The position numbers and the translations under genes were made by a program. From the NCBI GenBank assembly GCA_050115495.1, contig JASFQK010000008.1, positions 32,001 through 96,000 of the forward strand: a DNA stretch of 64,000 nt, in the 5' to 3' direction. The DNA comes from Phycisphaerae bacterium (lineage in GTDB: Bacteria; Planctomycetota; Phycisphaerae; UBA1845; Fen-1342). Below, piece by piece: positions 45,642-54,497 of the stretch (its first letter is position 1; every line of letters starts with the position of its first letter). The notes below the pieces were generated by a model that searched no databases, was not told where the DNA came from, and saw only the letters and a list, made by a program, of their open reading frames with translations.

Positions 45642-46769
45642 TTACGCGCGGAACGTGACCGAGACCGCTTGCAGGGGCTGCGGTCCGTCGGCGGCGAGTC
45701 GGTCGGCGAGGTCGCGGGCCTCCTCCGCCGACGTGCACAGCGTGAAGAACGCCGACCCGGAGCCGGTCATGCGGACGGGGCCGGGGCAGAGTCGGCGGAT
45801 GGCAGTTATCCAGACCCGCAGGTCGGGGTAGGTGGCCAGGGCGGGCTCTTCGAGGTCGTTGAAGAGGATCGCCGACAGGGCGGGCGGGTCGGCGAGGCGG
45901 GCGAGGACGTTGGCGAGGGGCGGGCGGGGCTCGGTCGGCGGGTCGCGGTCCCAGGCGGCATAGACCGCCGGCGTGCGACAGAATCCGCCACCGAGCAGCA
46001 GTATGGCGTGGGTGGTGAGGGGGTCGGCGGCTGGGGCGGCAGGTCGAAGAAGGGGACTGGCGCCGAGCCGGGGGGCCTCGCTGTGCTCAGTTGCCGCCGC
46101 GGGCGAGGTGCCTGTCCCCTCTTCCGACCGTTTGTCGGGGACGTCACGATCGCCGGCGCGCTGGCTTGGTTCGGCGGCGGGCACGCTTGCCGGCGGGCGC
46201 TCAAGCTGCTCGCCGGCAGCGGCAGGTCGGCTTCGGTCGGCGCCGGACTCACTGTCGGTCCGGTCGACGCCCGCGTCGCCTCGTGCCTGACCGGCGAAGA
46301 CGTCCTCGATCTGGTCGCCGCGGCCGCGGAGGATACAGAGCGGGCTGTGGAAGAAGAGTGGCACGTCCGAGCCGAGGGCGGCGCCGATGCGAGCGAGGTC
46401 GGCGACGCCGAGCGACCACAGGTCGTTGAGCAGGGCGAGCGTCGTGGCGGCGTTCGAGCTCCCGCCGCCGAGCCCCGCGCCGGCGGGGATCCGCTTGGCG
46501 AGTTCCAGGTGCACGCCGAAGTCGCTGCCCGTGGCCCGGGCCAGCTCATCGGCGGCCCGAAGGGCCAGGTTCCCCCGGTCGGTCGGCAGGCTCGGGTCGT
46601 CGCAGGAGAGCGTCCGGCGGCCGTCCGGAGCCGGGTGAGCGGTGATCGTGTCGTGCAGCGAGACCCGGGCGACGAGCGACTCGATCTCGTGAAACCCATC
46701 CGGCCGCAAACCAACGACGCGGAGCGTCAGATTGATCTTCGCCGGCGATGAGCGGGTGAGTGGGGGCAT
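45642..46769 (-). CDS. ispE: 4-diphosphocytidyl-2-C-methyl-D-erythritol kinase with a ~90-aa in-frame insertion
   Basis: PAKINLTL, GFHEIES, KRIPAGAGLGGGSSNAA, LGSDVP, NDLE, MTGSGS. Confidence 0.88.
   Translation of the reverse strand: MPPLTRSSPAKINLTLRVVGLRPDGFHEIESLVARVSLHDTITAHPAPDGRRTLSCDDPSLPTDRGNLALRAADELARATGSDFGVHLELAKRIPAGAGLGGGSSNAATTLALLNDLWSLGVADLARIGAALGSDVPLFFHSPLCILRGRGDQIEDVFAGQARGDAGVDRTDSESGADRSRPAAAGEQLERPPASVPAAEPSQRAGDRDVPDKRSEEGTGTSPAAATEHSEAPRLGASPLLRPAAPAADPLTTHAILLLGGGFCRTPAVYAAWDRDPPTEPRPPLANVLARLADPPALSAILFNDLEEPALATYPDLRVWITAIRRLCPGPVRMTGSGSAFFTLCTSAEEARDLADRLAADGPQPLQAVSVTFRA
46046..46124. repeat. Palindromic element inside ispE
   Basis: Terminal inverted repeats GAAGAAGGGGACTGGCGCC / GGTGCCTGTCCCCTCTTC. 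Confidence 0.65.
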
Positions 46770-46929
46770 GGGGGGATTATACGGGAAGTCACCGGCGCAG
46801 GCAGTTGGGATGCGGACGCGCGTGGACTCTCTTGCCGCGGCGTTGGCTGGGAGACTTGAGAAGTGCGGGGGGCCACCAGTCCTGAGCGATTCCGACGAGT
46901 GTCGGGCGACGTTCTCCGACGAAGTCACT

Positions 46930-47973
46930 TCACGCGGTCATGCGCGTGTCCCAGGCTTGCGCCAAGCGTCGCGGCTCGTTTCGCTTCTTCGAGGTAATCC
47001 ACCACTTGCCTCGGCGGGCAGACAATCCTCGGCTGGCCAGCGCGCGCATCACGTGTCGGTCACCGGCTTCAAGTAGTCGCTTGATGTGACGGGCGGGACC
47101 GAAATCGGCCTGCCGGGTGTAGTACATCCAGCCCGCCACCTGCGCTCGTTTGCGTGCAAGCCCTTCGAGGGAATCCGCGCTGACCACCTTCGCCCCACGG
47201 AGGTATGCTTCGGCCAGCGCAAGGGCCTTCGCGGTCTGCTCTGCCACGATCTTCACGCCGCGCCGGTTGTTCACGCGCAGGTTGTGCACTCGTTGCTCGC
47301 GGTGCTGGGCCGCGAATCCGTTCATCCGTAGCTTTCGGGCGTTGATCGACAGACCGTGACCTTCGATTTGCCTCCGCATCGCGTCGCCTGGCCATTCAGC
47401 TAGGCTCGGCGATTGGACCGAGATCACCATGTCGTCATAGGTGCGCGAGTACCGCGAACCGTTCCGCCCGCACGCGGCCGACAGCGCACGATCGGCGTCG
47501 TAAAGGAAGAGGTTCAGCGCATCAGAGCTTACCGGTGAACCTTGTGCCATACGACCACGCACGGTGCACAAGAATGACAGGAGCAGCGCCACGTCCGATC
47601 CAAAACCCATGCCCAGCAGTCGTTTCTTCAATTCAAGCTGGGAGATCGACGGGTAGCAGTCTCGTACGTCTCGTGTGACCACGTAGCGTCGGCCGAGGTG
47701 CCGCCGAGCACTCGTGAAGCATGATCGCGACTTTGCGCCGCCGTGGGCACATGGGTGGGGTGGAACGGCCCGAACCAGGAATCGGTGTAGCTTTCGGAGT
47801 ATCGACTTGGTCTGAGGCTTGGGTGCGTCGATCTCCCTGATCTTCCCGCACACGCGCTTCTGACGCGTCGGTAGAAACGCGGCGTCCATGTTCTTGGCTA
47901 GCGTCCACAGTCTCGCCTCGGACATGCCGACAGCTTTGGCTATGTCAGCGCCCCTCATCGCTTCTGGTTTCAT
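46930..47973 (-). CDS. Retron-like reverse transcriptase (divergent motifs)
   Basis: REIDAP, AHGG, SARRH, DVRDCYPSI, QGSPVS, YSRTYDDMVIS, IN..K, QRVHNLRVN; RT domain only, 347 aa. Confidence 0.88.
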   Translation of the reverse strand: MKPEAMRGADIAKAVGMSEARLWTLAKNMDAAFLPTRQKRVCGKIREIDAPKPQTKSILRKLHRFLVRAVPPHPCAHGGAKSRSCFTSARRHLGRRYVVTRDVRDCYPSISQLELKKRLLGMGFGSDVALLLSFLCTVRGRMAQGSPVSSDALNLFLYDADRALSAACGRNGSRYSRTYDDMVISVQSPSLAEWPGDAMRRQIEGHGLSINARKLRMNGFAAQHREQRVHNLRVNNRRGVKIVAEQTAKALALAEAYLRGAKVVSADSLEGLARKRAQVAGWMYYTRQADFGPARHIKRLLEAGDRHVMRALASRGLSARRGKWWITSKKRNEPRRLAQAWDTRMTA

Positions 47974-48295
47974 CCGTCTCCGTCTCCGACGACAACGTTG
48001 ATCTCAGCTCGTCCTCGACAGACAGCATCTTCTGAATCATTGCGACAAGTGCCTGGCTCACTTGGTCTTCGCTCTGCAAACGTCCGTTAGCAGGTTGCGC
48101 GAGAATGATGAGCACCTCCGGCGGAATCCGCAGGGCATTCGCGAGCCGTCGCAACACATCCAGTGACGGCTGCCGCTCGCCGTTTTCGACGAGGCTTAGA
48201 AACGGAATGCTGACGCCTGCATTGTCGGCGAGCGTAGACAGCCGCATCCCTTTTGCAGCCCGCACTATACGAATGGCCTTGCCAAGCTCTAGCAT
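47945..48295 (-). CDS. XRE/Cro-C1 family HTH protein, overlapping the RT start
   Basis: LGKAIRIVRAAKGM...LADNAGVS..FLSLVENGERQPSLDVLRRLANAL. Confidence 0.88.
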   Translation of the reverse strand: MLELGKAIRIVRAAKGMRLSTLADNAGVSIPFLSLVENGERQPSLDVLRRLANALRIPPEVLIILAQPANGRLQSEDQVSQALVAMIQKMLSVEDELRSTLSSETETDETRSDEGR

Positions 48296-48351
48296 TGGCA
48301 GTCCCTTGAGTTCGATCTGTGAGCACACGCGTTACCCATCGCGCGCTGATA

Positions 48352-48648
48352 TCAGGATGCGAGGAGTGTATCGACCTCTGCCTGGAGTTGATCGAACAGC
48401 AGTTCGAGCTTCTCCGCGAGGTCCATAGCCTCCGCCGCGGCCAGGGTCCGACCGTACCGACCGAGTTCTTCGATCAGCGTGGCCAGAGCGACCGCGTCAT
48501 CCATCGACCCCGAAGTCCCCGAGGCTCTCCGCCGCGCCATTTCTGACGAGAGGAGCTTGCGAATCCGGATGGCGCCATCTTCAACGACGCGAAAGAACTC
48601 GCAGGGCCTGGAGGAACTCCCCGACCACACCAACTCATGATGCTGCAT
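48352..48648 (-). CDS. Small alpha-helical protein (98 aa), candidate effector of the RT system
   Basis: ATG at 48648 preceded by GGAGG; amphipathic helical C-terminal half; co-oriented with HTH and RT. Confidence 0.6.
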   Translation of the reverse strand: MQHHELVWSGSSSRPCEFFRVVEDGAIRIRKLLSSEMARRRASGTSGSMDDAVALATLIEELGRYGRTLAAAEAMDLAEKLELLFDQLQAEVDTLLAS

Positions 48649-48649
48649 A

Positions 48650-48900
48650 CGCAGCCTCCATTGGGTTTGGCGGGAAGAGCATCGCTTCCCGTCGGGGTCC
48701 GACCAGCCGGGGACAGTCCCCGGACTCACGATCGGCAGGCCTGGCAGGGGCCAGGCTCCCGCGGCTAGCGCCGCTCCCGGACGAGCCGGGCAACCTCCCC
48801 GCGACACGAGATCCCGGGGCAGGTGAGGGGTTTGGAGGCTTGGTGCGATCGGTTATTCAGTTTTCAACTGGGCGCGGACAAGCCGGTGGCCCACTAAACT
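48650..48900 (-). ncRNA. Structured non-coding leader / candidate RT-associated ncRNA
   Basis: About 9 consecutive hairpins, most of them enclosed by the AGCCTCCA/TGGAGGCT inverted repeat, between the promoter and the small ORF. Confidence 0.6.
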
Positions 48901-48906
48901 GCGGGT

Positions 48907-48935
48907 ATTATACCACACAAGTAAAATGGAGTCAA
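48907..48935 (-). promoter_or_regulatory. Near-consensus sigma70 promoter driving the RT operon
   Basis: Minus strand TTGACT-N17-TATAAT, extended -10 TG, A/T-rich upstream tract. Confidence 0.8.
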
Positions 48936-49221
48936 CTTTGGTTAAATAATTTTCTCTTTTTCGGACGATCACCTCGCTGCACCGATTGCGCGGTGTGGTG
49001 GTCCTGCAGCGTACACGGCTGCGGGTCAACTCCCTCGCTTTCCGGCGTCAGGACGCCGTAGACGCATTCGTGCACGCGGCGGAGGAGAACTCGGGCCAAG
49101 GCGATCGCGGGTATGGCGCGGCGGGTGGGCTGCGGAGGGGGCACGGCCGGGCGGCAGCGTGTTGGCTGCGGCGCTGTTTTGCTTCTCAGCAGGCGAAAGG
49201 GGTACGTTGCGCCGCGGGGCG

Positions 49222-49788
49222 CTACAGCTCGTCGTCGGGTTGCAGGGGGGAGTGGTGCCAGGGCCAGTAGCTCATGACCGCTGCTTCGTCTTCGTCGAGG
49301 CTGGCGTGGTAGTGATGTGCGTGCGGGCAGGGGAAGCGGAATTCCTGTTGCGTGAAGCCGCGCAGGCGGAGGGTTGCCTCGAACTCGTCCAGCGGGCCGT
49401 AGGCGTAGATCACGTTGTGCTGGTCGTAGACGAGCAGGCCGGGGCCGCTGAAGGACTCCACCCAGACGTGGTGCCGACCGTCCTGCTCGAAGAACGTGCG
49501 GTATGTTTCGAGGAAGCCGCGGACCGCCGCCGGCGAGATGTCGGCGGCCGCGTATCGTCCTGGTGGCCGTTCCTCCCGGCGGGGAGTGAGCAGGACGTAC
49601 AGGACGCCGAACGGGCCAGGGAGCAGGTCGAGCAGGGCCAGGATCAGGTTGATGTGGTCGCGCGACGGACCGATAACGAGGCGCATGGGCCCCGTGGTCT
49701 GCTCGCGATACCAGAGGTCGCCGTATTCGTGCGGCTGCGGCGGCTGGCGCCAGCGGGGGCTGGACAGTTTCGGCAATCTGATCTTCAC
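49222..49788 (-). CDS. Hypothetical protein
   Basis: Clean ORF with GC-biased codons; motifs FFEQDGRH, LVYDQHN, PHAHHYH. Confidence 0.7.
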   Translation of the reverse strand: MKIRLPKLSSPRWRQPPQPHEYGDLWYREQTTGPMRLVIGPSRDHINLILALLDLLPGPFGVLYVLLTPRREERPPGRYAAADISPAAVRGFLETYRTFFEQDGRHHVWVESFSGPGLLVYDQHNVIYAYGPLDEFEATLRLRGFTQQEFRFPCPHAHHYHASLDEDEAAVMSYWPWHHSPLQPDDEL

Positions 49789-49960: not shown

Positions 49961-50722
49961 TCATGGCCGGGGCTCGGTGCTGCTGAGACGCAGGCGGAGG
50001 AGGAGGTCGTTGAGGGCGGGGGCGGCGGTGGGGTCGGGTGGTAGGGGGCTGGTGGCGGAGGCGGCTTCGAGGGTGGCGGTCAGGCGGCGGTATTCGTGCT
50101 CGTGGAAGGCGAGATCGGTGTCGGCCAGGGGGTCGTGCTCGCCGCCGGCGGTCTTGCGGGCGATGAGGTCGTCGACGTGCGGGAGGCGGTGGGCCTCGTT
50201 CAGACGGGGGAGGTTCGCCTCGATCTCGCCGGTACGCATTAGGTGCAGGCCGGCCAGCAGCACGCGGTACGTGTAGAGCAGCGGCTTGAGGCGGCGGTGC
50301 TGCTCGACGAGCCGCCACTGCGTGCGGGCGAAGCCGAGGTAATGCAGCGCGTGCTGCTTCGTGACGCAGCCGCGGGCGATGGCCTTCAACTCGTCGTGGA
50401 CGGGCGTCGTGTGCAACACGAGCGGCGAGTAGAGCTGCTCGAGCACGTACCCGTTCGGGCGGAGCAGCAGGCGGAAGAACTTGCGGACGTCGTGCGTGAC
50501 GAGGTCGAGATCGACGCCGGCGGGGCCCGTGGTGCACTCGATCGTCTCGGGCGGCGGCGTTAGACCGATAACTTCGCGGAGCGGCAGCACGTGGACGCCG
50601 CGAAGGTCGTAGTCGGAGTCCGCCGACGGGAAGCCGTAAAGGTGGGCGCCGCTGATGGTGACGAAGAGGAGCGGGTAGGGCTGGGCGGCGATCACGCTTT
50701 GAAGTTGTGGCGGGGCCGGCAT
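49961..50722 (-). CDS. DNA polymerase beta-superfamily nucleotidyltransferase (RlaP/YcgL family)
   Basis: SGAHLYGFPSADSDYDLRGVH, NGYVLEQL, KPLLYTYRVLL. Confidence 0.85.
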   Translation of the reverse strand: MPAPPQLQSVIAAQPYPLLFVTISGAHLYGFPSADSDYDLRGVHVLPLREVIGLTPPPETIECTTGPAGVDLDLVTHDVRKFFRLLLRPNGYVLEQLYSPLVLHTTPVHDELKAIARGCVTKQHALHYLGFARTQWRLVEQHRRLKPLLYTYRVLLAGLHLMRTGEIEANLPRLNEAHRLPHVDDLIARKTAGGEHDPLADTDLAFHEHEYRRLTATLEAASATSPLPPDPTAAPALNDLLLRLRLSSTEPRP

Positions 50723-50973
50723 GTGGATGAGTCCTTGGGGGCGTTTCGCTCGATCACGCTGGCGTTTCTCGGCGTTCGGTCGTGCGGCGGGTGGAACCCG
50801 GCCTACGCGGCTCGATTGTCAGTTCGCGCTCACATCCCGTTCATGGCGTTTCTCGGCGTTCGATTGTGCGGCGGGTGAAACCCGCCCTACCCGGTTGTGG
50901 TTGCCGGCTGTGTGCGGCGCCTTCGGCTCGGAGGCAGTCCGCTTCTTCAACCGCGTGATCGGTCGCGCTTGCG

Positions 50974-51750
50974 TTAGTCAAGGTCGCTGGCGATATTCGA
51001 GACCAATCGGCACTTCTCGCAGCGGAAGTCATAGCGGTCGAGCCACTGCTCGTCGAGCTTCCAGGCTCCGCCGCAGTCCGGACAGCGACGCTGAAGCTCG
51101 GCCCGGCGGCTGCGCCCGTAGTAACGCATCAGGTCGTAATACGTCGGCACGCCGGTGTTGGCTTCGATTAGTCGGCAGACGTCGCGGCCCTCCTCCGCCA
51201 GTTCGCTGTGCGGTTCCGACAACTGTCGATAGGCCAACCGTTCCCCGGCGCCGCTGGCGATCCAGATTGAGTCGAGGTCGCGGTAGTGGTAGGCCCAGAA
51301 TCGCAGGTCCTCGAAGTTGCCGTACTCGCTCGTCGGCGGGATGCGGTACAGCGGCACGACGCCGCCGCATCCGCCGCAACGCAGCGGCGTCTCGCACGAG
51401 AGGAAGTCCGTGGAGAGGATCAGCGCCGGCGGCTTGCGGCAGGTGCAGACCGGGTCCGACTCGGGGTCAGGGCCGAGCACGCGTGTCGAACGCCATTCGA
51501 CGCCGGCTTTGCGCAGAGCGCGTATGGCATCGCGAACCCGCTTGCTGCGATGTTTGGGGTGCAGCGAGTCGGCGTCCGGCAACGACACGTACCAGCGCCA
51601 GCCGCCGCGGATCTCCACAACGGGGGCGTCCTGCTCGATCAACTGCCCGTTTCGCCGGAGTGAGAACAACAACTCGTCGATCGCCCAGCGCACCTCTTCC
51701 GGGTCCGCCTTTCGTTTCTGCCAGGTGAAGGTCAGTTCCGCCGTGTGCAT
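50974..51750 (-). CDS. Zn-ribbon-containing, possibly nucleic-acid-binding protein (DUF2310-like)
   Basis: LRRNGQ, CGGCGGVVPLY, PTYYDL, CPDCGGAW, FRCEKCRLVSN. Confidence 0.75.
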   Translation of the reverse strand: MHTAELTFTWQKRKADPEEVRWAIDELLFSLRRNGQLIEQDAPVVEIRGGWRWYVSLPDADSLHPKHRSKRVRDAIRALRKAGVEWRSTRVLGPDPESDPVCTCRKPPALILSTDFLSCETPLRCGGCGGVVPLYRIPPTSEYGNFEDLRFWAYHYRDLDSIWIASGAGERLAYRQLSEPHSELAEEGRDVCRLIEANTGVPTYYDLMRYYGRSRRAELQRRCPDCGGAWKLDEQWLDRYDFRCEKCRLVSNIASDLD

Positions 51751-51809
51751 GCTGGGCCTCCCTGGGCGACCGCGGCCCTGTTTCCGCAGGGTCCGTCGAA
51801 TCGCCGGTG

Positions 51810-52637
51810 CTACATATTGTCGTTTCCGAACGTCCGCTGGAACAGGGCCGGGACGATTTCGCCGGCGGTGCCGCGCAACCACACGTCACCGCCACCGGGT
51901 TCGTCCGGATCGATCACGATCAGCTTGGCGCCGGCGGCGCGGGCCCTGGCGGGCAACATGGCCGCGGGCAGGACGACGCCGGACGTGCCGATGATCAGCA
52001 TCACGTCGCAGCGCCGGCTGTCGGACAGGGCTTGGCTCCAGTCCGGCTCGGTCAGCGGCTCGCCGAAAAGCACGGCGCTCGGACGCACCAACCCGCGCCA
52101 GGAGAGACCGGCCAGCGGGCGGATCGCCAGGGCCACACGCAGCAGCGCCATCCAGCTCAGCTCGGCGGCCTCCAGGCGGCGGACGATCCTGGCCAGACCG
52201 GCCCGGGTTAGCAGCCGCACGAAACGCTTGCGCAGCGTAACGACCCGCAGCAGCGAGCCGTGGATCTCGCGGACGGTGGTGCTCCCGGCTTCCTGATGCA
52301 GGCCGTCGACGTTCTGCGTGACCACGGTCACGTTGACGTGCTTCTCGGCGTGGGCGATGGCCTGGTGGGCGGCGTTGGGCTTCGCCTGCGCCAGCGGCCG
52401 CAGCAGCCGGGCCAGGAAGTGGGCGAGTCGCCGCGGACGCCACAGGGCCGTTCGCACCAACCCGGTCCACGTCGCGAACTCGTCGGGCGAGAACTCTGTC
52501 CAGAGTCCGCCGGCAGTGCGGAAGGTGTCGATGCCGCATTCGGCGGAGACGCCCGCGCCGGTGAAGACGACCAGACGCTCGGCGGAGCGCAGGTAGTCGG
52601 CGGCGAGATCCAGATTGTCGCCGGCTGGCGTTATGTC
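51810..52637 (-). CDS. Sir2/CobB-family NAD-dependent deacylase lacking the Zn-binding cysteines (start codon unclear)
   Basis: FTGAGVSAECGIDTFR, PNAAH, TQNVDGLH, EIHGS, VLFGE, IIGTSGVV. Confidence 0.8.
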   Translation of the reverse strand, partial: DITPAGDNLDLAADYLRSAERLVVFTGAGVSAECGIDTFRTAGGLWTEFSPDEFATWTGLVRTALWRPRRLAHFLARLLRPLAQAKPNAAHQAIAHAEKHVNVTVVTQNVDGLHQEAGSTTVREIHGSLLRVVTLRKRFVRLLTRAGLARIVRRLEAAELSWMALLRVALAIRPLAGLSWRGLVRPSAVLFGEPLTEPDWSQALSDSRRCDVMLIIGTSGVVLPAAMLPARARAAGAKLIVIDPDEPGGGDVWLRGTAGEIVPALFQRTFGNDNM

Positions 52638-52686
52638 TCGCGTACACTCGTTGGCTGGCGTGATATGGCACGCTCTCCGGTCGCGG

Positions 52687-53625
52687 TCACGTGATGCAAC
52701 TCCGCCGGGCTTTGATGAGGAAGGCGTTGACGCGGGTGTAGTCGGGGCGGTCCGGTAATGTTGTTCGTTCGTACGCCGCATCGAATCGACGATGTAGCTC
52801 CAGCCGCCAGGCGTCGACGTCGGGCCAGGGGACCTCGCCGCGGCGGATGGCCAGCAGGCGGTCGCGATGCTCGTCGACGGCCACGGGGACCGTCGCTTCG
52901 CGCAGGGCGACGATTCCCGCCAGCAGCAGCCGGATCAGGTGCATGGCGTGCTTCCATTTGATGTCGCGCTGGCTGTTGAGGCGGGCGGAGAGCTTGCGGA
53001 ACTGGCTGAGCACGTAGCCGCCGTAGGTCTGGTAGATGAGCTTCGAGAGGAACGCGGTGCGCAAGTCGAGCAGTTCGCGGGCCAGCGGCGTGGCATGCTC
53101 GACGAGCGGCGTGTAGAGGCACTCGAGGACGTTCGGGTTGGCCTTCAGGGCGAGCGTGAGGAACTTCTGCAATTCCCAGTAGCACTCCTGCGACTGGGCG
53201 TTTTCGAGCTGCTCCGGTACGCCGTAGAGCGACCAGTGCATCTCCGCCGGCGGGAGGTAGACGCCGCGGCGGTCGACGTCGGAGCCTTCGTGGTCGAGGC
53301 CATACGCCCGCGAGCCGACCACGCAGCGGTAGATGACGCAGTCGAGCAGGTCGTAGTCGTCGAGGACGTTGGCGGCGGACCAGATCTGTTCGCGCAATAA
53401 CTGCTTGAGGACGGCGAACTGGTTGCGGCGCAGGGTGGCCTCGCTGCCGTCGGCGAAGCGGACGCGGTAGGAGTGCGTGTGGTCCGCCGGCGACTTGACG
53501 ATGAGGCCGACCGCGCCGGGCGGATGCTGCACGTCGCTGCCGGCGGCCTGGACGCCGATGCGGCTGACGACCTGCGTCCCGGGCGGGACGATGGCGTTCG
53601 GGTCGTAAGCGATCCTGCGGGGCAA
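52687..53625 (-). CDS. RlaP/YcgL-family nucleotidyltransferase with N-terminal SH3-like extension
   Basis: VGSRAYGL...SDVDRRGVY, KANPNVLE, KHAMHLIRLL. Confidence 0.85.
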   Translation of the reverse strand: MPRRIAYDPNAIVPPGTQVVSRIGVQAAGSDVQHPPGAVGLIVKSPADHTHSYRVRFADGSEATLRRNQFAVLKQLLREQIWSAANVLDDYDLLDCVIYRCVVGSRAYGLDHEGSDVDRRGVYLPPAEMHWSLYGVPEQLENAQSQECYWELQKFLTLALKANPNVLECLYTPLVEHATPLARELLDLRTAFLSKLIYQTYGGYVLSQFRKLSARLNSQRDIKWKHAMHLIRLLLAGIVALREATVPVAVDEHRDRLLAIRRGEVPWPDVDAWRLELHRRFDAAYERTTLPDRPDYTRVNAFLIKARRSCIT

Positions 53626-53711
53626 GGGGGTACTCCTGTCTGTGCGGGTGGTGCGCTATTGTCGTCCGCGGCGGGGCGGAGGCAACGGGGGCTCCCTCGA
53701 CGACGCTGGTG

Positions 53712-54377
53712 TCATCGCCTCAACCTCGCCCCCCAGTCCTGGAGCTCGCGTTGCATGTTTGTTCGGGCGGCCGCTTCGTACTTCTCCCGGAATCGGGCCG
53801 TGTGGAAGATGTGGTCCTTGGCGAGCATGCTGCGCAGGAACGCCTGGCGGTGTGGTCCGAGTTCCTGGTCGGGGAGGCCGACCTCGCGGCGGATCGCGTC
53901 GGCGTAGCGGTCGTAGACCGCCGGCTCGCGACCCAGGATGCTGAGGTCGATGTCGCAGATGATTCGCTCGCGGTCGTCGTGTAGCGGACGGCGGTGGTCC
54001 GTGGCCAGAATCAGATGCACGACGCCGGTTACGAACTCGGGAGCGGCCCCGAGCGACGTCAGCGCGGTGCGAGCCAGCTCGGCGCTGCGCTCTTCGCTGT
54101 CCTTGGCGCCGATCGCGTACACCGCATCGTGGAAGAGAATGGCCGCCTCGATGTCCAGTGGCTCTTCGAGGGCTGTGTCGCGGCGCAGGATGTCGAGGCA
54201 ATCCTCAACGTGCGCCAGATTGTGGTAGGCGCGCCAAGGCTCGGTGTGCCGGCGGTACAGCTCTTCGCAGACCGCCTCGGTGTCGCCGGTCAGGTCGAGC
54301 CCTTCGCAGATGCGAGCCCAGTGCCGGCGCAGTCGCTCTCGCTGATTCGCAGGTTGGTCCGAGCTGTCTGCGGGCAT
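53712..54377 (-). CDS. HD-superfamily metal-dependent phosphohydrolase (COG4339-like)
   Basis: RAYHNLAHV, LFHDAVY, SEERSA, ILATDH, DIDLSILG. Confidence 0.82.
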   Translation of the reverse strand: MPADSSDQPANQRERLRRHWARICEGLDLTGDTEAVCEELYRRHTEPWRAYHNLAHVEDCLDILRRDTALEEPLDIEAAILFHDAVYAIGAKDSEERSAELARTALTSLGAAPEFVTGVVHLILATDHRRPLHDDRERIICDIDLSILGREPAVYDRYADAIRREVGLPDQELGPHRQAFLRSMLAKDHIFHTARFREKYEAAARTNMQRELQDWGARLRR

Positions 54378-54497
54378 CGCTTGGACTCCGTCGCATCGCA
54401 ATGAGGTGCACGGCCGTTCGCGCCAGATCCGGCCGCTACGTCAACTGCCGGCCCGCCTGAGCCACGTCAAGCCGGCGACCGAGCATACCGCTCCGCG

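Follow-up and report, generated by a model that had tools for sequence, protein, structure and literature searches.

The locus on the minus strand of the window (the whole 64,000-nt stretch of Phycisphaerae bacterium DNA that was analysed) is very probably a type VI retron of a divergent lineage, and very probably works like one. Computation establishes its layout, its conserved RNA pairings and its family assignment. A promoter, a leader of ~250 nt, a gene for a small protein (SP), a helix-turn-helix (HTH) gene and a reverse transcriptase (RT) gene follow one another, and this layout is common to all 14 loci for which the whole region is available, the window locus included. The leader hides the SP ribosome-binding site (RBS) in structure and pairs across the SP gene through two inverted repeats, IR1 and IR2, the latter pairing being the weaker part. 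The promoter and genes are the following.

48907..48935, minus strand: sigma-70 type promoter, TTGACT-17-TATAAT, 11/12 consensus, predicted start ~48900
48352..48648, minus strand: SP, 98 aa, a probable toxin, modelled as a three-helix bundle
47945..48295, minus strand: Cro/C1-type HTH protein, 116 aa, probably the antitoxin and a partner of the RT (PADLOC HTH_VI)
46930..47973, minus strand: retron RT, 347 aa, active site RTYDD (Pfam RVT_1; PADLOC RT_VI)

The promoter is the sole sigma-70 site found within 46500-49400, and a TTGAC or TAGAC -35 element lies 230-340 nt 5' of the SP start in 14/14 loci. The RNA counts given below refer to these 14 loci. Left out of them are L001, L025 and L029 (upstream DNA missing), L016 (a weak SP match without HTH or RT) and L047, which was folded singly. 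L047 (genome G744) is a fifteenth member of the lineage, in which leader fold, SP and HTH are intact and the RT is broken after ~80 codons.

The small ORF is a real gene, as the sequence-only reading had supposed: 13 homologues share 67-83% identity with it, and 11 of the 13 are also 98 aa long. Its family comprises 160 representatives at 50% clustering, nearly all of 90-110 aa. SP is present ahead of the HTH gene in every one of the 14 loci, and its AlphaFold model (pLDDT 83.9) predicts helices at 15-40, 47-66 and 71-97. The window SP has no match over cut-off in Pfam or NCBIfam and none to SP_VI in PADLOC, which places it outside the type VI SP clusters described by the PADLOC SP_VI models. 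A single SP representative among the 135 scanned (150 listed) matches SP_VI, weakly (E 4.6e-4); three plasmid SPs match it at 3e-38, 1e-30 and 3.6e-4. Foldseek of the SP model against the PDB returns nothing at E 0.001, only generic helical bundles; a PDB sequence search gives nothing significant for SP and generic HTH domains only for HTH; an ESM Atlas search with SP gives no usable match. By these profile and sequence comparisons, the window SP is a new sequence family.

The HTH gene overlaps the RT start and is likewise present in 14/14 loci. Its best PADLOC model is HTH_VI (E 3e-19; runner-up E 2e-7), and the best model for the window RT is RT_VI (E 3.6e-38). RT_VI is also the best model for 21 of 22 lineage RTs, which score 102-140 bits on it, whereas six plasmid type VI RTs reach 224-338. 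A sharp boundary sets the lineage off, with 111 proteins at E <=1e-44 and the next at 5e-12.

Retron RTs typically carry YxDD and VTG motifs. None of the 111 homologues has tyrosine at the first YxDD position (TYDD in 31, VADD in 30, SADD in 9, FADD in 2, others in the remainder); the DD is kept in 109, and the VTG position reads VH[NSG]. Type V-like RTs read LLDD, so tyrosine loss is found elsewhere in clade 3 and is unusual rather than unique. In a tree of 56 rows (24 lineage, 19 type V/VI and 13 other retron RTs, assembled without Vpa2 and Sen3 and with no type IV RT knowingly included), lineage and type V/VI RTs group against the 13 others at 99/98, placing the lineage in clade 3. Lineage RTs form their own clade (100/100) on a stem of 1.32, as sister to V+VI at 90/68 only; the lineage may be a sixth type VI subclade or belong to the published 'Large' lineage. 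One tip, L075, is labelled VI in this tree and is type V by PADLOC. Forcing all 40 HTH-linked RTs together is rejected by an AU test (p 0.0007), a result that is uninformative on the lineage because, in the free tree, three type VI RTs already group with type V (100/100). A second Planctomycetota group with the order small ORF-HTH-RT (L042-L046; FVDD, WVDD or YVDD) makes up a distinct RT clade (94/90) apart from the window lineage, and three of its loci carry a boxA core.

Judged against the main texts of the two preprints on Vpa2 and Sen3, the lineage appears to be new: it is deep, centred on Planctomycetota, and has an SP family of its own and an RT motif without the tyrosine of YxDD. Newness of the boxA motif discussed below is judged on the same basis. 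Divergent type VI RTs were under-sampled by the cut-off of an earlier survey, according to the part of that paper available (PMC13712802).

The distribution of the operon is patchy. Queried with the window RT, it is found in 0/6 genomes of the genus and 0/71 of the family, and in 6/278 other genomes of the order; searches at class level (E 1e-25) and phylum level return 7/400 genomes, six of them of the window lineage, and 1/400, respectively. Among named relatives of the RT, the closest belongs to a Phycisphaerae MAG, and the named homologues are all from Planctomycetota except one, from a Chloroflexi MAG. Operon GC is 0.62 vs 0.68-0.70 in both flanks, a composition that fits horizontal gain. 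Among the matches listed from plasmid and phage records, only distant RTs appear, at no more than ~30% identity; none of 96 candidate stretches in viral contigs holds an SP relative, and a search with a short Sen3 primer motif gives four loci, none with an RT. An Rfam search yields two matches, both at chance level.

The flanks hold other genes. Upstream, 49961-54401 includes an RlaP-family nucleotidyltransferase (49961-50722), an ORF at 52687-53625 that resembles it as judged by eye, a DUF2310 protein, a Sir2/CobB-like deacylase and, again by eye, an HD-type ORF. On the other side, a GHMP-kinase gene (45642-46930; ispE-like by eye), in which a long low-complexity insert separates the two domains, has its upstream region directly adjoining the RT stop.

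The RNA elements on which the argument turns lie in the leader, within SP and just beyond it.

48869..48893, minus strand: leader 5' hairpin, from the fold of the window
48854..48872, minus strand: degenerate boxA-like element, family consensus GCTCTTTGACAAnTGAATA
48840..48852, minus strand: 5' arm of helix P1, 13 nt, pairing with SP codons 6-10
48833..48840, minus strand: anti-Shine-Dalgarno (anti-SD) arm, AGCCTCCA
48735..48832, minus strand: four hairpins, candidate reverse-transcription template, from the fold and the position 5' of IR1
48725..48734, minus strand: IR1, pairing with IR2 after the SP stop codon
48653..48660, minus strand: SP ribosome-binding site, 3' arm of the anti-SD stem, TGGAGGCT
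48621..48633, minus strand: 3' arm of P1 inside the SP coding sequence, paired with 48852-48840
48325..48346, minus strand: hairpin 3' of the SP stop codon, from the RNAalifold consensus with two-sided changes
48313..48323, minus strand: IR2, paired with IR1

The octamers AGCCTCCA (48840-48833) and TGGAGGCT (48660-48653), both read on the minus strand, complement each other exactly, and the GGAGG (48659-48655) stands at six-base spacing from the ATG at 48648. The helix is present in both the minimum free energy and the centroid fold of 48900-48620, a region more stable than any of 200 shuffles (z -3.2). For its central pairs, the pairing probability is 0.95 when the leader is folded and 0.73-0.89 for the 611-nt transcript, and an equally good helix arises in 2/300 shuffles of the 50-nt 5' segment. 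A GGAG-type site precedes SP in 14/14 loci, and an anti-SD helix of 7-10 bp is kept at the same position and register in 11 of them; by shuffling, seven of these loci are matched by at most 7/300 and four by 17-48/300. The three without the long-range helix, L019, L020 and L021, form one RT subclade and retain P1. In the L020 leader, the complement of the 5' arm is a GGAG word lying upstream, and a second RBS ~30 nt on serves SP; this subclade may have rewired its clamp.

Since the Shine-Dalgarno sequence is fixed, the CCUCC:GGAGG core is unable to covary and flanking pairs alone vary. The flank is A-U in the window, U-A in L014, L015, L026 and L028, and G-C in L024, and L022 pairs as GAUCUCC:GGAGAUC. 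Complementarity by chance in a GC-rich leader, with no role at all, might be suspected of a helix of eight base pairs in a host whose starts are often as structured, and is very improbable: position and register are the same in 11/14 loci whose RTs are only 35-68% identical to that of the window, the flanking pairs have changed, and the helix also occurs in L047 and in the cl2075-type locus L037. In this leader RNA, which is of type VI retron type, the anti-SD stem forms the basal helix.

The octamers had been read correctly and the pairing incompletely, for the arm extends 5' as 48852-48840 and pairs inside the ORF. This longer helix, P1, arises from the same 5' arm, so that a single arm of ~21 nt covers both the SP RBS and codons 6-10. 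Covariation in P1 is strong. It forms a helix of 8-16 bp in 13/14 loci, each matched by at most 9/300 shuffles, with L024 failing; cognate arms score 28.0 vs 17.2 for non-cognate arms, a difference reached by 0/20000 permutations. Permutation figures of this kind overstate, because kin share sequence. Wide-window duplex folding was too noisy for P1 and the inverted repeats, and ungapped helices were used instead. From the nine closest sequences, RNAalifold recovers the anti-SD and P1 helices unaided. In the MAFFT alignment of these nine, two-sided changes occur in 12/24 named pairs (0/500 shuffles as high, and slid controls far lower), including 7 of the 11 P1 pairs; two flanking anti-SD pairs are partly misaligned there.

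The sequence-only reading likened the anti-SD stem to the a1/a2 arms of a retron, an identity that the alignment does not bear out, for no conserved G follows its 5' arm. The a1/a2-like pairing here joins 48734-48725 with 48323-48313, and IR1:IR2, spanning the SP gene, is the more likely look-alike. Its outer 5 bp are paired in 97.8% of cells, with two-sided changes in 2/5 pairs; locus by locus it is weak, with 1/14 loci beating shuffles alone and 84/20000 permutations as good. The last base of IR2, G 48313, is a candidate priming base, invariant in the nine-sequence alignment and not kept in L019. The four hairpins at 48735..48832 are a candidate template by their position and by analogy with Vpa2 and Sen3. 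Crossing of the anti-SD helix by IR1:IR2 means that the two folds would compete or form a pseudoknot; fold A lies 8.4 kcal/mol below fold B. An 8-nt direct repeat, CCAAACCC (48835-48828 and 48670-48663), was considered as a cDNA toehold and rejected as not conserved. No conserved direct repeat was found between template and start region, including a Vpa2-like 7-nt loop-to-loop match.

Folding energy alone does not mark the SP RBS as unusually closed. Opening its ribosome footprint costs 13.1 kcal/mol vs 11.6 +/- 3.4 at host control starts, 30/80 of which are as high. With the whole leader deleted, the start region becomes cheaper to open in 12/14 loci; in the window locus the cost falls only to 11.6. 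Removal of the arm had been expected to free the RBS; in silico, a local hairpin reforms at similar cost. When 25-140 nt of template 5' of IR1 are blocked as a cDNA mimic, the footprint costs 11.8-13.7 kcal/mol (from 13.1) and the Shine-Dalgarno site 7.8-9.2 (from 9.4), and with IR1:IR2 forced the footprint likewise stays within 11.8-13.7 kcal/mol. The footprint cost stays in this range because RBS and AUG refold into the local hairpin. Both folds thus hide the SP start, and release would need more than arm removal.

These calculations bear directly on unzipping in cis, the simplest form of the switch proposed from the sequence alone, in which an RT primed at IR2 copies ~100-120 nt up to the anti-SD and P1 arms and strips them, leaving a free RBS to be translated. 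The geometry is suitable: IR1 lies 98 nt from the anti-SD arm and 118 nt from the P1 5' end, in the size range of the Vpa2 (86 nt) and Sen3 (112 and 145 nt) products, and its pairing with IR2 conflicts with the anti-SD helix. A blocked template, however, leaves the footprint cost where it was through the local hairpin, and Vpa2 msDNA acts in trans (10.1101/2025.10.22.683967), making cis unzipping an unlikely route.

Predicted protein contacts would add a further layer of control. HTH is predicted to bind SP, with a complex score of 0.70 against 0.02 for the best of three controls; this mark is reached by 116/157 solved and 2/215 mismatched pairs, a benchmark that applies roughly, given custom alignments. 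Prediction runs have at least 78% of contacts in common, with partner pLDDT of at least 72. The C-terminal helix of HTH (86-101, with invariant E94) would pack against SP helices 1 and 3, where SP residues R28, I29 and L88 are invariant.

On balance, translational control as in Vpa2, with HTH as a second lock, is the probable reading. The leader would belong to the hybrid RNA made by an anti-phage operon of type VI retron kind, in the order leader-SP-HTH-RT. Its ~21-nt 5' arm would close over the RBS plus codons 6-10, and a second fold, made of IR1:IR2 and the local RBS/AUG hairpin, would likewise hide the SP start. With the start hidden in either fold, SP translation would be kept low, and HTH would bind whatever SP is made; RT and HTH would sit on the leader-SP RNA. 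On infection, RT-made ssDNA would accumulate and open the start region, through RNA binding or remodelling of the complex, until SP outruns HTH and the cell arrests. SP toxicity, phage defence, ssDNA synthesis and ssDNA release are drawn here from the analogy with Vpa2 and Sen3. The switch first proposed from the sequence survives in part: the stem is conserved, the operon is a retron operon and Vpa2 provides a precedent, while the a1/a2 identity and the freeing of the RBS by arm removal fall away. Its novelty falls as well, as msDNA-dependent SP release is already in print for Vpa2 (10.1101/2025.10.22.683967).

Sen3 offers a different model. That retron carries the same RBS stem, yet its SP is constitutive and controlled via HTH (10.64898/2026.04.27.721009). 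Applied to the window, the stem would merely scaffold the RNA or trim SP output, SP would always be made and neutralised by HTH, and the trigger would act on the RT-HTH-SP complex rather than on translation. The predicted interface, formed by the HTH C-terminal helix and SP helices 1 and 3, is like the Sen3 model; the window SP is long, as cl2075 SPs are relative to Vpa2; and the window RBS is not unusually closed. P1, however, forces covariation on coding sequence in 13/14 loci, a heavy cost for a passive scaffold, and a boxA-like element, if functional, suits an untranslated ORF. HTH-SP binding, for its part, is compatible with translational control. Constitutive SP synthesis is a possible but rather improbable account of the window, and Vpa2-like translational control remains the preferred one.

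Expression data come from a single wetland metatranscriptome study, whose contigs are blind to RNA ends, strand and level. One 550-nt contig is identical to 48337-48886, covering leader and SP; 47824-48299 and 46867-47022, pieces of HTH and RT, lie on separate contigs, and uncovered parts of the RT are uninformative. Depth, which cannot rank genes here, is 35 for the leader-SP contig vs ~3 for the others. The leader-SP contig resembles the enriched transcript of Vpa2 and Sen3, a weak hint.

No other non-coding word in the leaders is as well conserved as GCTCTTTGACAAnTGAATA. It follows the 5' hairpin, which itself recurs, with unrelated sequence, across most homologues and at L037, a cl2075-type locus. 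The host carries GATCTTTGACAA ~200 nt before its 16S gene and again after the spacer tRNA-Ala in the 16S-23S spacer; rRNA boxA occupies such leader and spacer places (PMC13753749). Leaders match GATCTTTGACAA at 9 or more of 12 bases in 11/14 cases vs 16/603 other windows, and the window's own copy matches at only 6/12, as 490/500 shuffles do. The core also opens the leader in 5/16 other HTH-RT loci, including the cl2075-type L037 and L072; the group L038, L077-L083 lacks it. The host encodes Rho and NusB. An untranslated 300-nt ORF ahead of an antitoxin gene would be a plausible Rho target, so a boxA-like element would fit translational silencing. It is tentatively proposed that part of the type VI retrons, including the window lineage and cl2075-type loci, might load the rRNA antitermination complex at the leader boxA, letting RNA polymerase cross an untranslated toxin gene and reach HTH and RT. 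The main texts of the Vpa2 and Sen3 preprints (10.1101/2025.10.22.683967; 10.64898/2026.04.27.721009) make no mention of boxA, Nus, Rho or antitermination, and full-text literature searches returned no relevant paper joining retrons with boxA, or with antitermination and NusB.

If this proposal is right, the leader would be a transcription-and-translation device, in which boxA shields the silent RNA from Rho and a two-helix clamp, covarying with toxin codons, keeps it silent. Loss of antitermination during infection could then itself starve the cell of antitoxin. A working boxA-like element would connect defence by retrons with antitermination of the rRNA type, and may account for the 5' element on which defence by Sen3 depends (10.64898/2026.04.27.721009).

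Two further observations concern related sequences. A non-coding repeat of genome G000 has eight copies (C7:62626, C8:2109, C25:2331, C30:622, C32:80003, C36:916, C46:116 and C61:17826) and ends in a boxA word of rRNA type with nnGAATA or a similar tail behind it, much as retron leaders do; parts of it recur on many contigs, and it is possibly a leader that antiterminates downstream cargo. Just 5' of the -35 element, the type VI plasmid loci L038, L077, L078, L079, L081, L082 and L083, a group without the boxA-like word, carry a palindrome, TTCGC(T)-n-(A)GCGAA, and L037 has TTTCACTGTCAGTGAAA at the matching place. The palindrome is a candidate HTH operator.

Comparison with known systems is limited to the portions of the source papers available. 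In Retron-Vpa2, SP translation is repressed, msDNA is needed for release and suffices in trans, and pairing of the 3' end to the leader is likened to a1/a2 (10.1101/2025.10.22.683967). The window locus shares its order of ncRNA, SP, HTH and RT, the joining of leader and SP in one RNA, the enclosure of RBS and start codon in stems, and the 3' end that pairs back to the leader. It differs in SP length (98 aa vs 55 aa in Vpa2), RT motif (TYDD vs YADD), RNA length (~590 vs ~470 nt), host phylum (Planctomycetota) and the hold on its RBS, which is exerted by a long-range arm together with P1; no counterpart of the conserved 7-nt loop repeats of Vpa2 was found here.

Retron-Sen3 and cl2075 offer likenesses of another kind. 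The Sen3 pairing across the SP gene is named IR1-IR2 and is placed like a1/a2, and SPs of the 'Large' type VI lineage fall outside the described clusters (10.64898/2026.04.27.721009). Common to these systems and the window are a basal stem that encloses the RBS, an IR1-IR2 pairing that spans the SP gene, a conserved 5' stem-loop, an alternative fold that hides the RBS again, structure within the SP coding sequence and a modelled contact of the HTH C-terminal helix with SP; the cl2075-type plasmid locus L037 has hairpin, boxA-like word and anti-SD in the same order. Unlike them, the window has an SP without SP_VI match and TYDD in place of YVDD, and a helix onto codons 6-10 is not described in the available text.

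In the founding classification of type VI retrons, as far as its text is available, the SP-HTH-RT order is definitional and SPs are three-helix proteins (Mestre et al. 2020; PMC7736814). The window locus agrees in its clade 3 RT, its Cro/C1 HTH and its small three-helix accessory protein, and differs in protein lengths (HTH of 116 aa vs ~91-110 aa, SP of 98 aa vs 75-79 aa) and in an RT lineage that is separate and long-branched. The leader resembles rRNA operons in that its 5' hairpin precedes a 12-nt word similar to UGCUCUUUAACA of E. coli and AUGAUCUUUGAAA of B. subtilis (PMC13753749); here the element lies in a retron leader and the window copy is degenerate (6/12).

With this lineage come an SP family of ~160 clusters, overlooked by current defence models, and an RT without the usual tyrosine in its active site. 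Natural compensatory changes single out the helices of interest, namely anti-SD, the helix onto codons 6-10 and IR1-IR2. For a switch known from Vpa2 and disputed by Sen3, the window lineage provides a third, distant test case.
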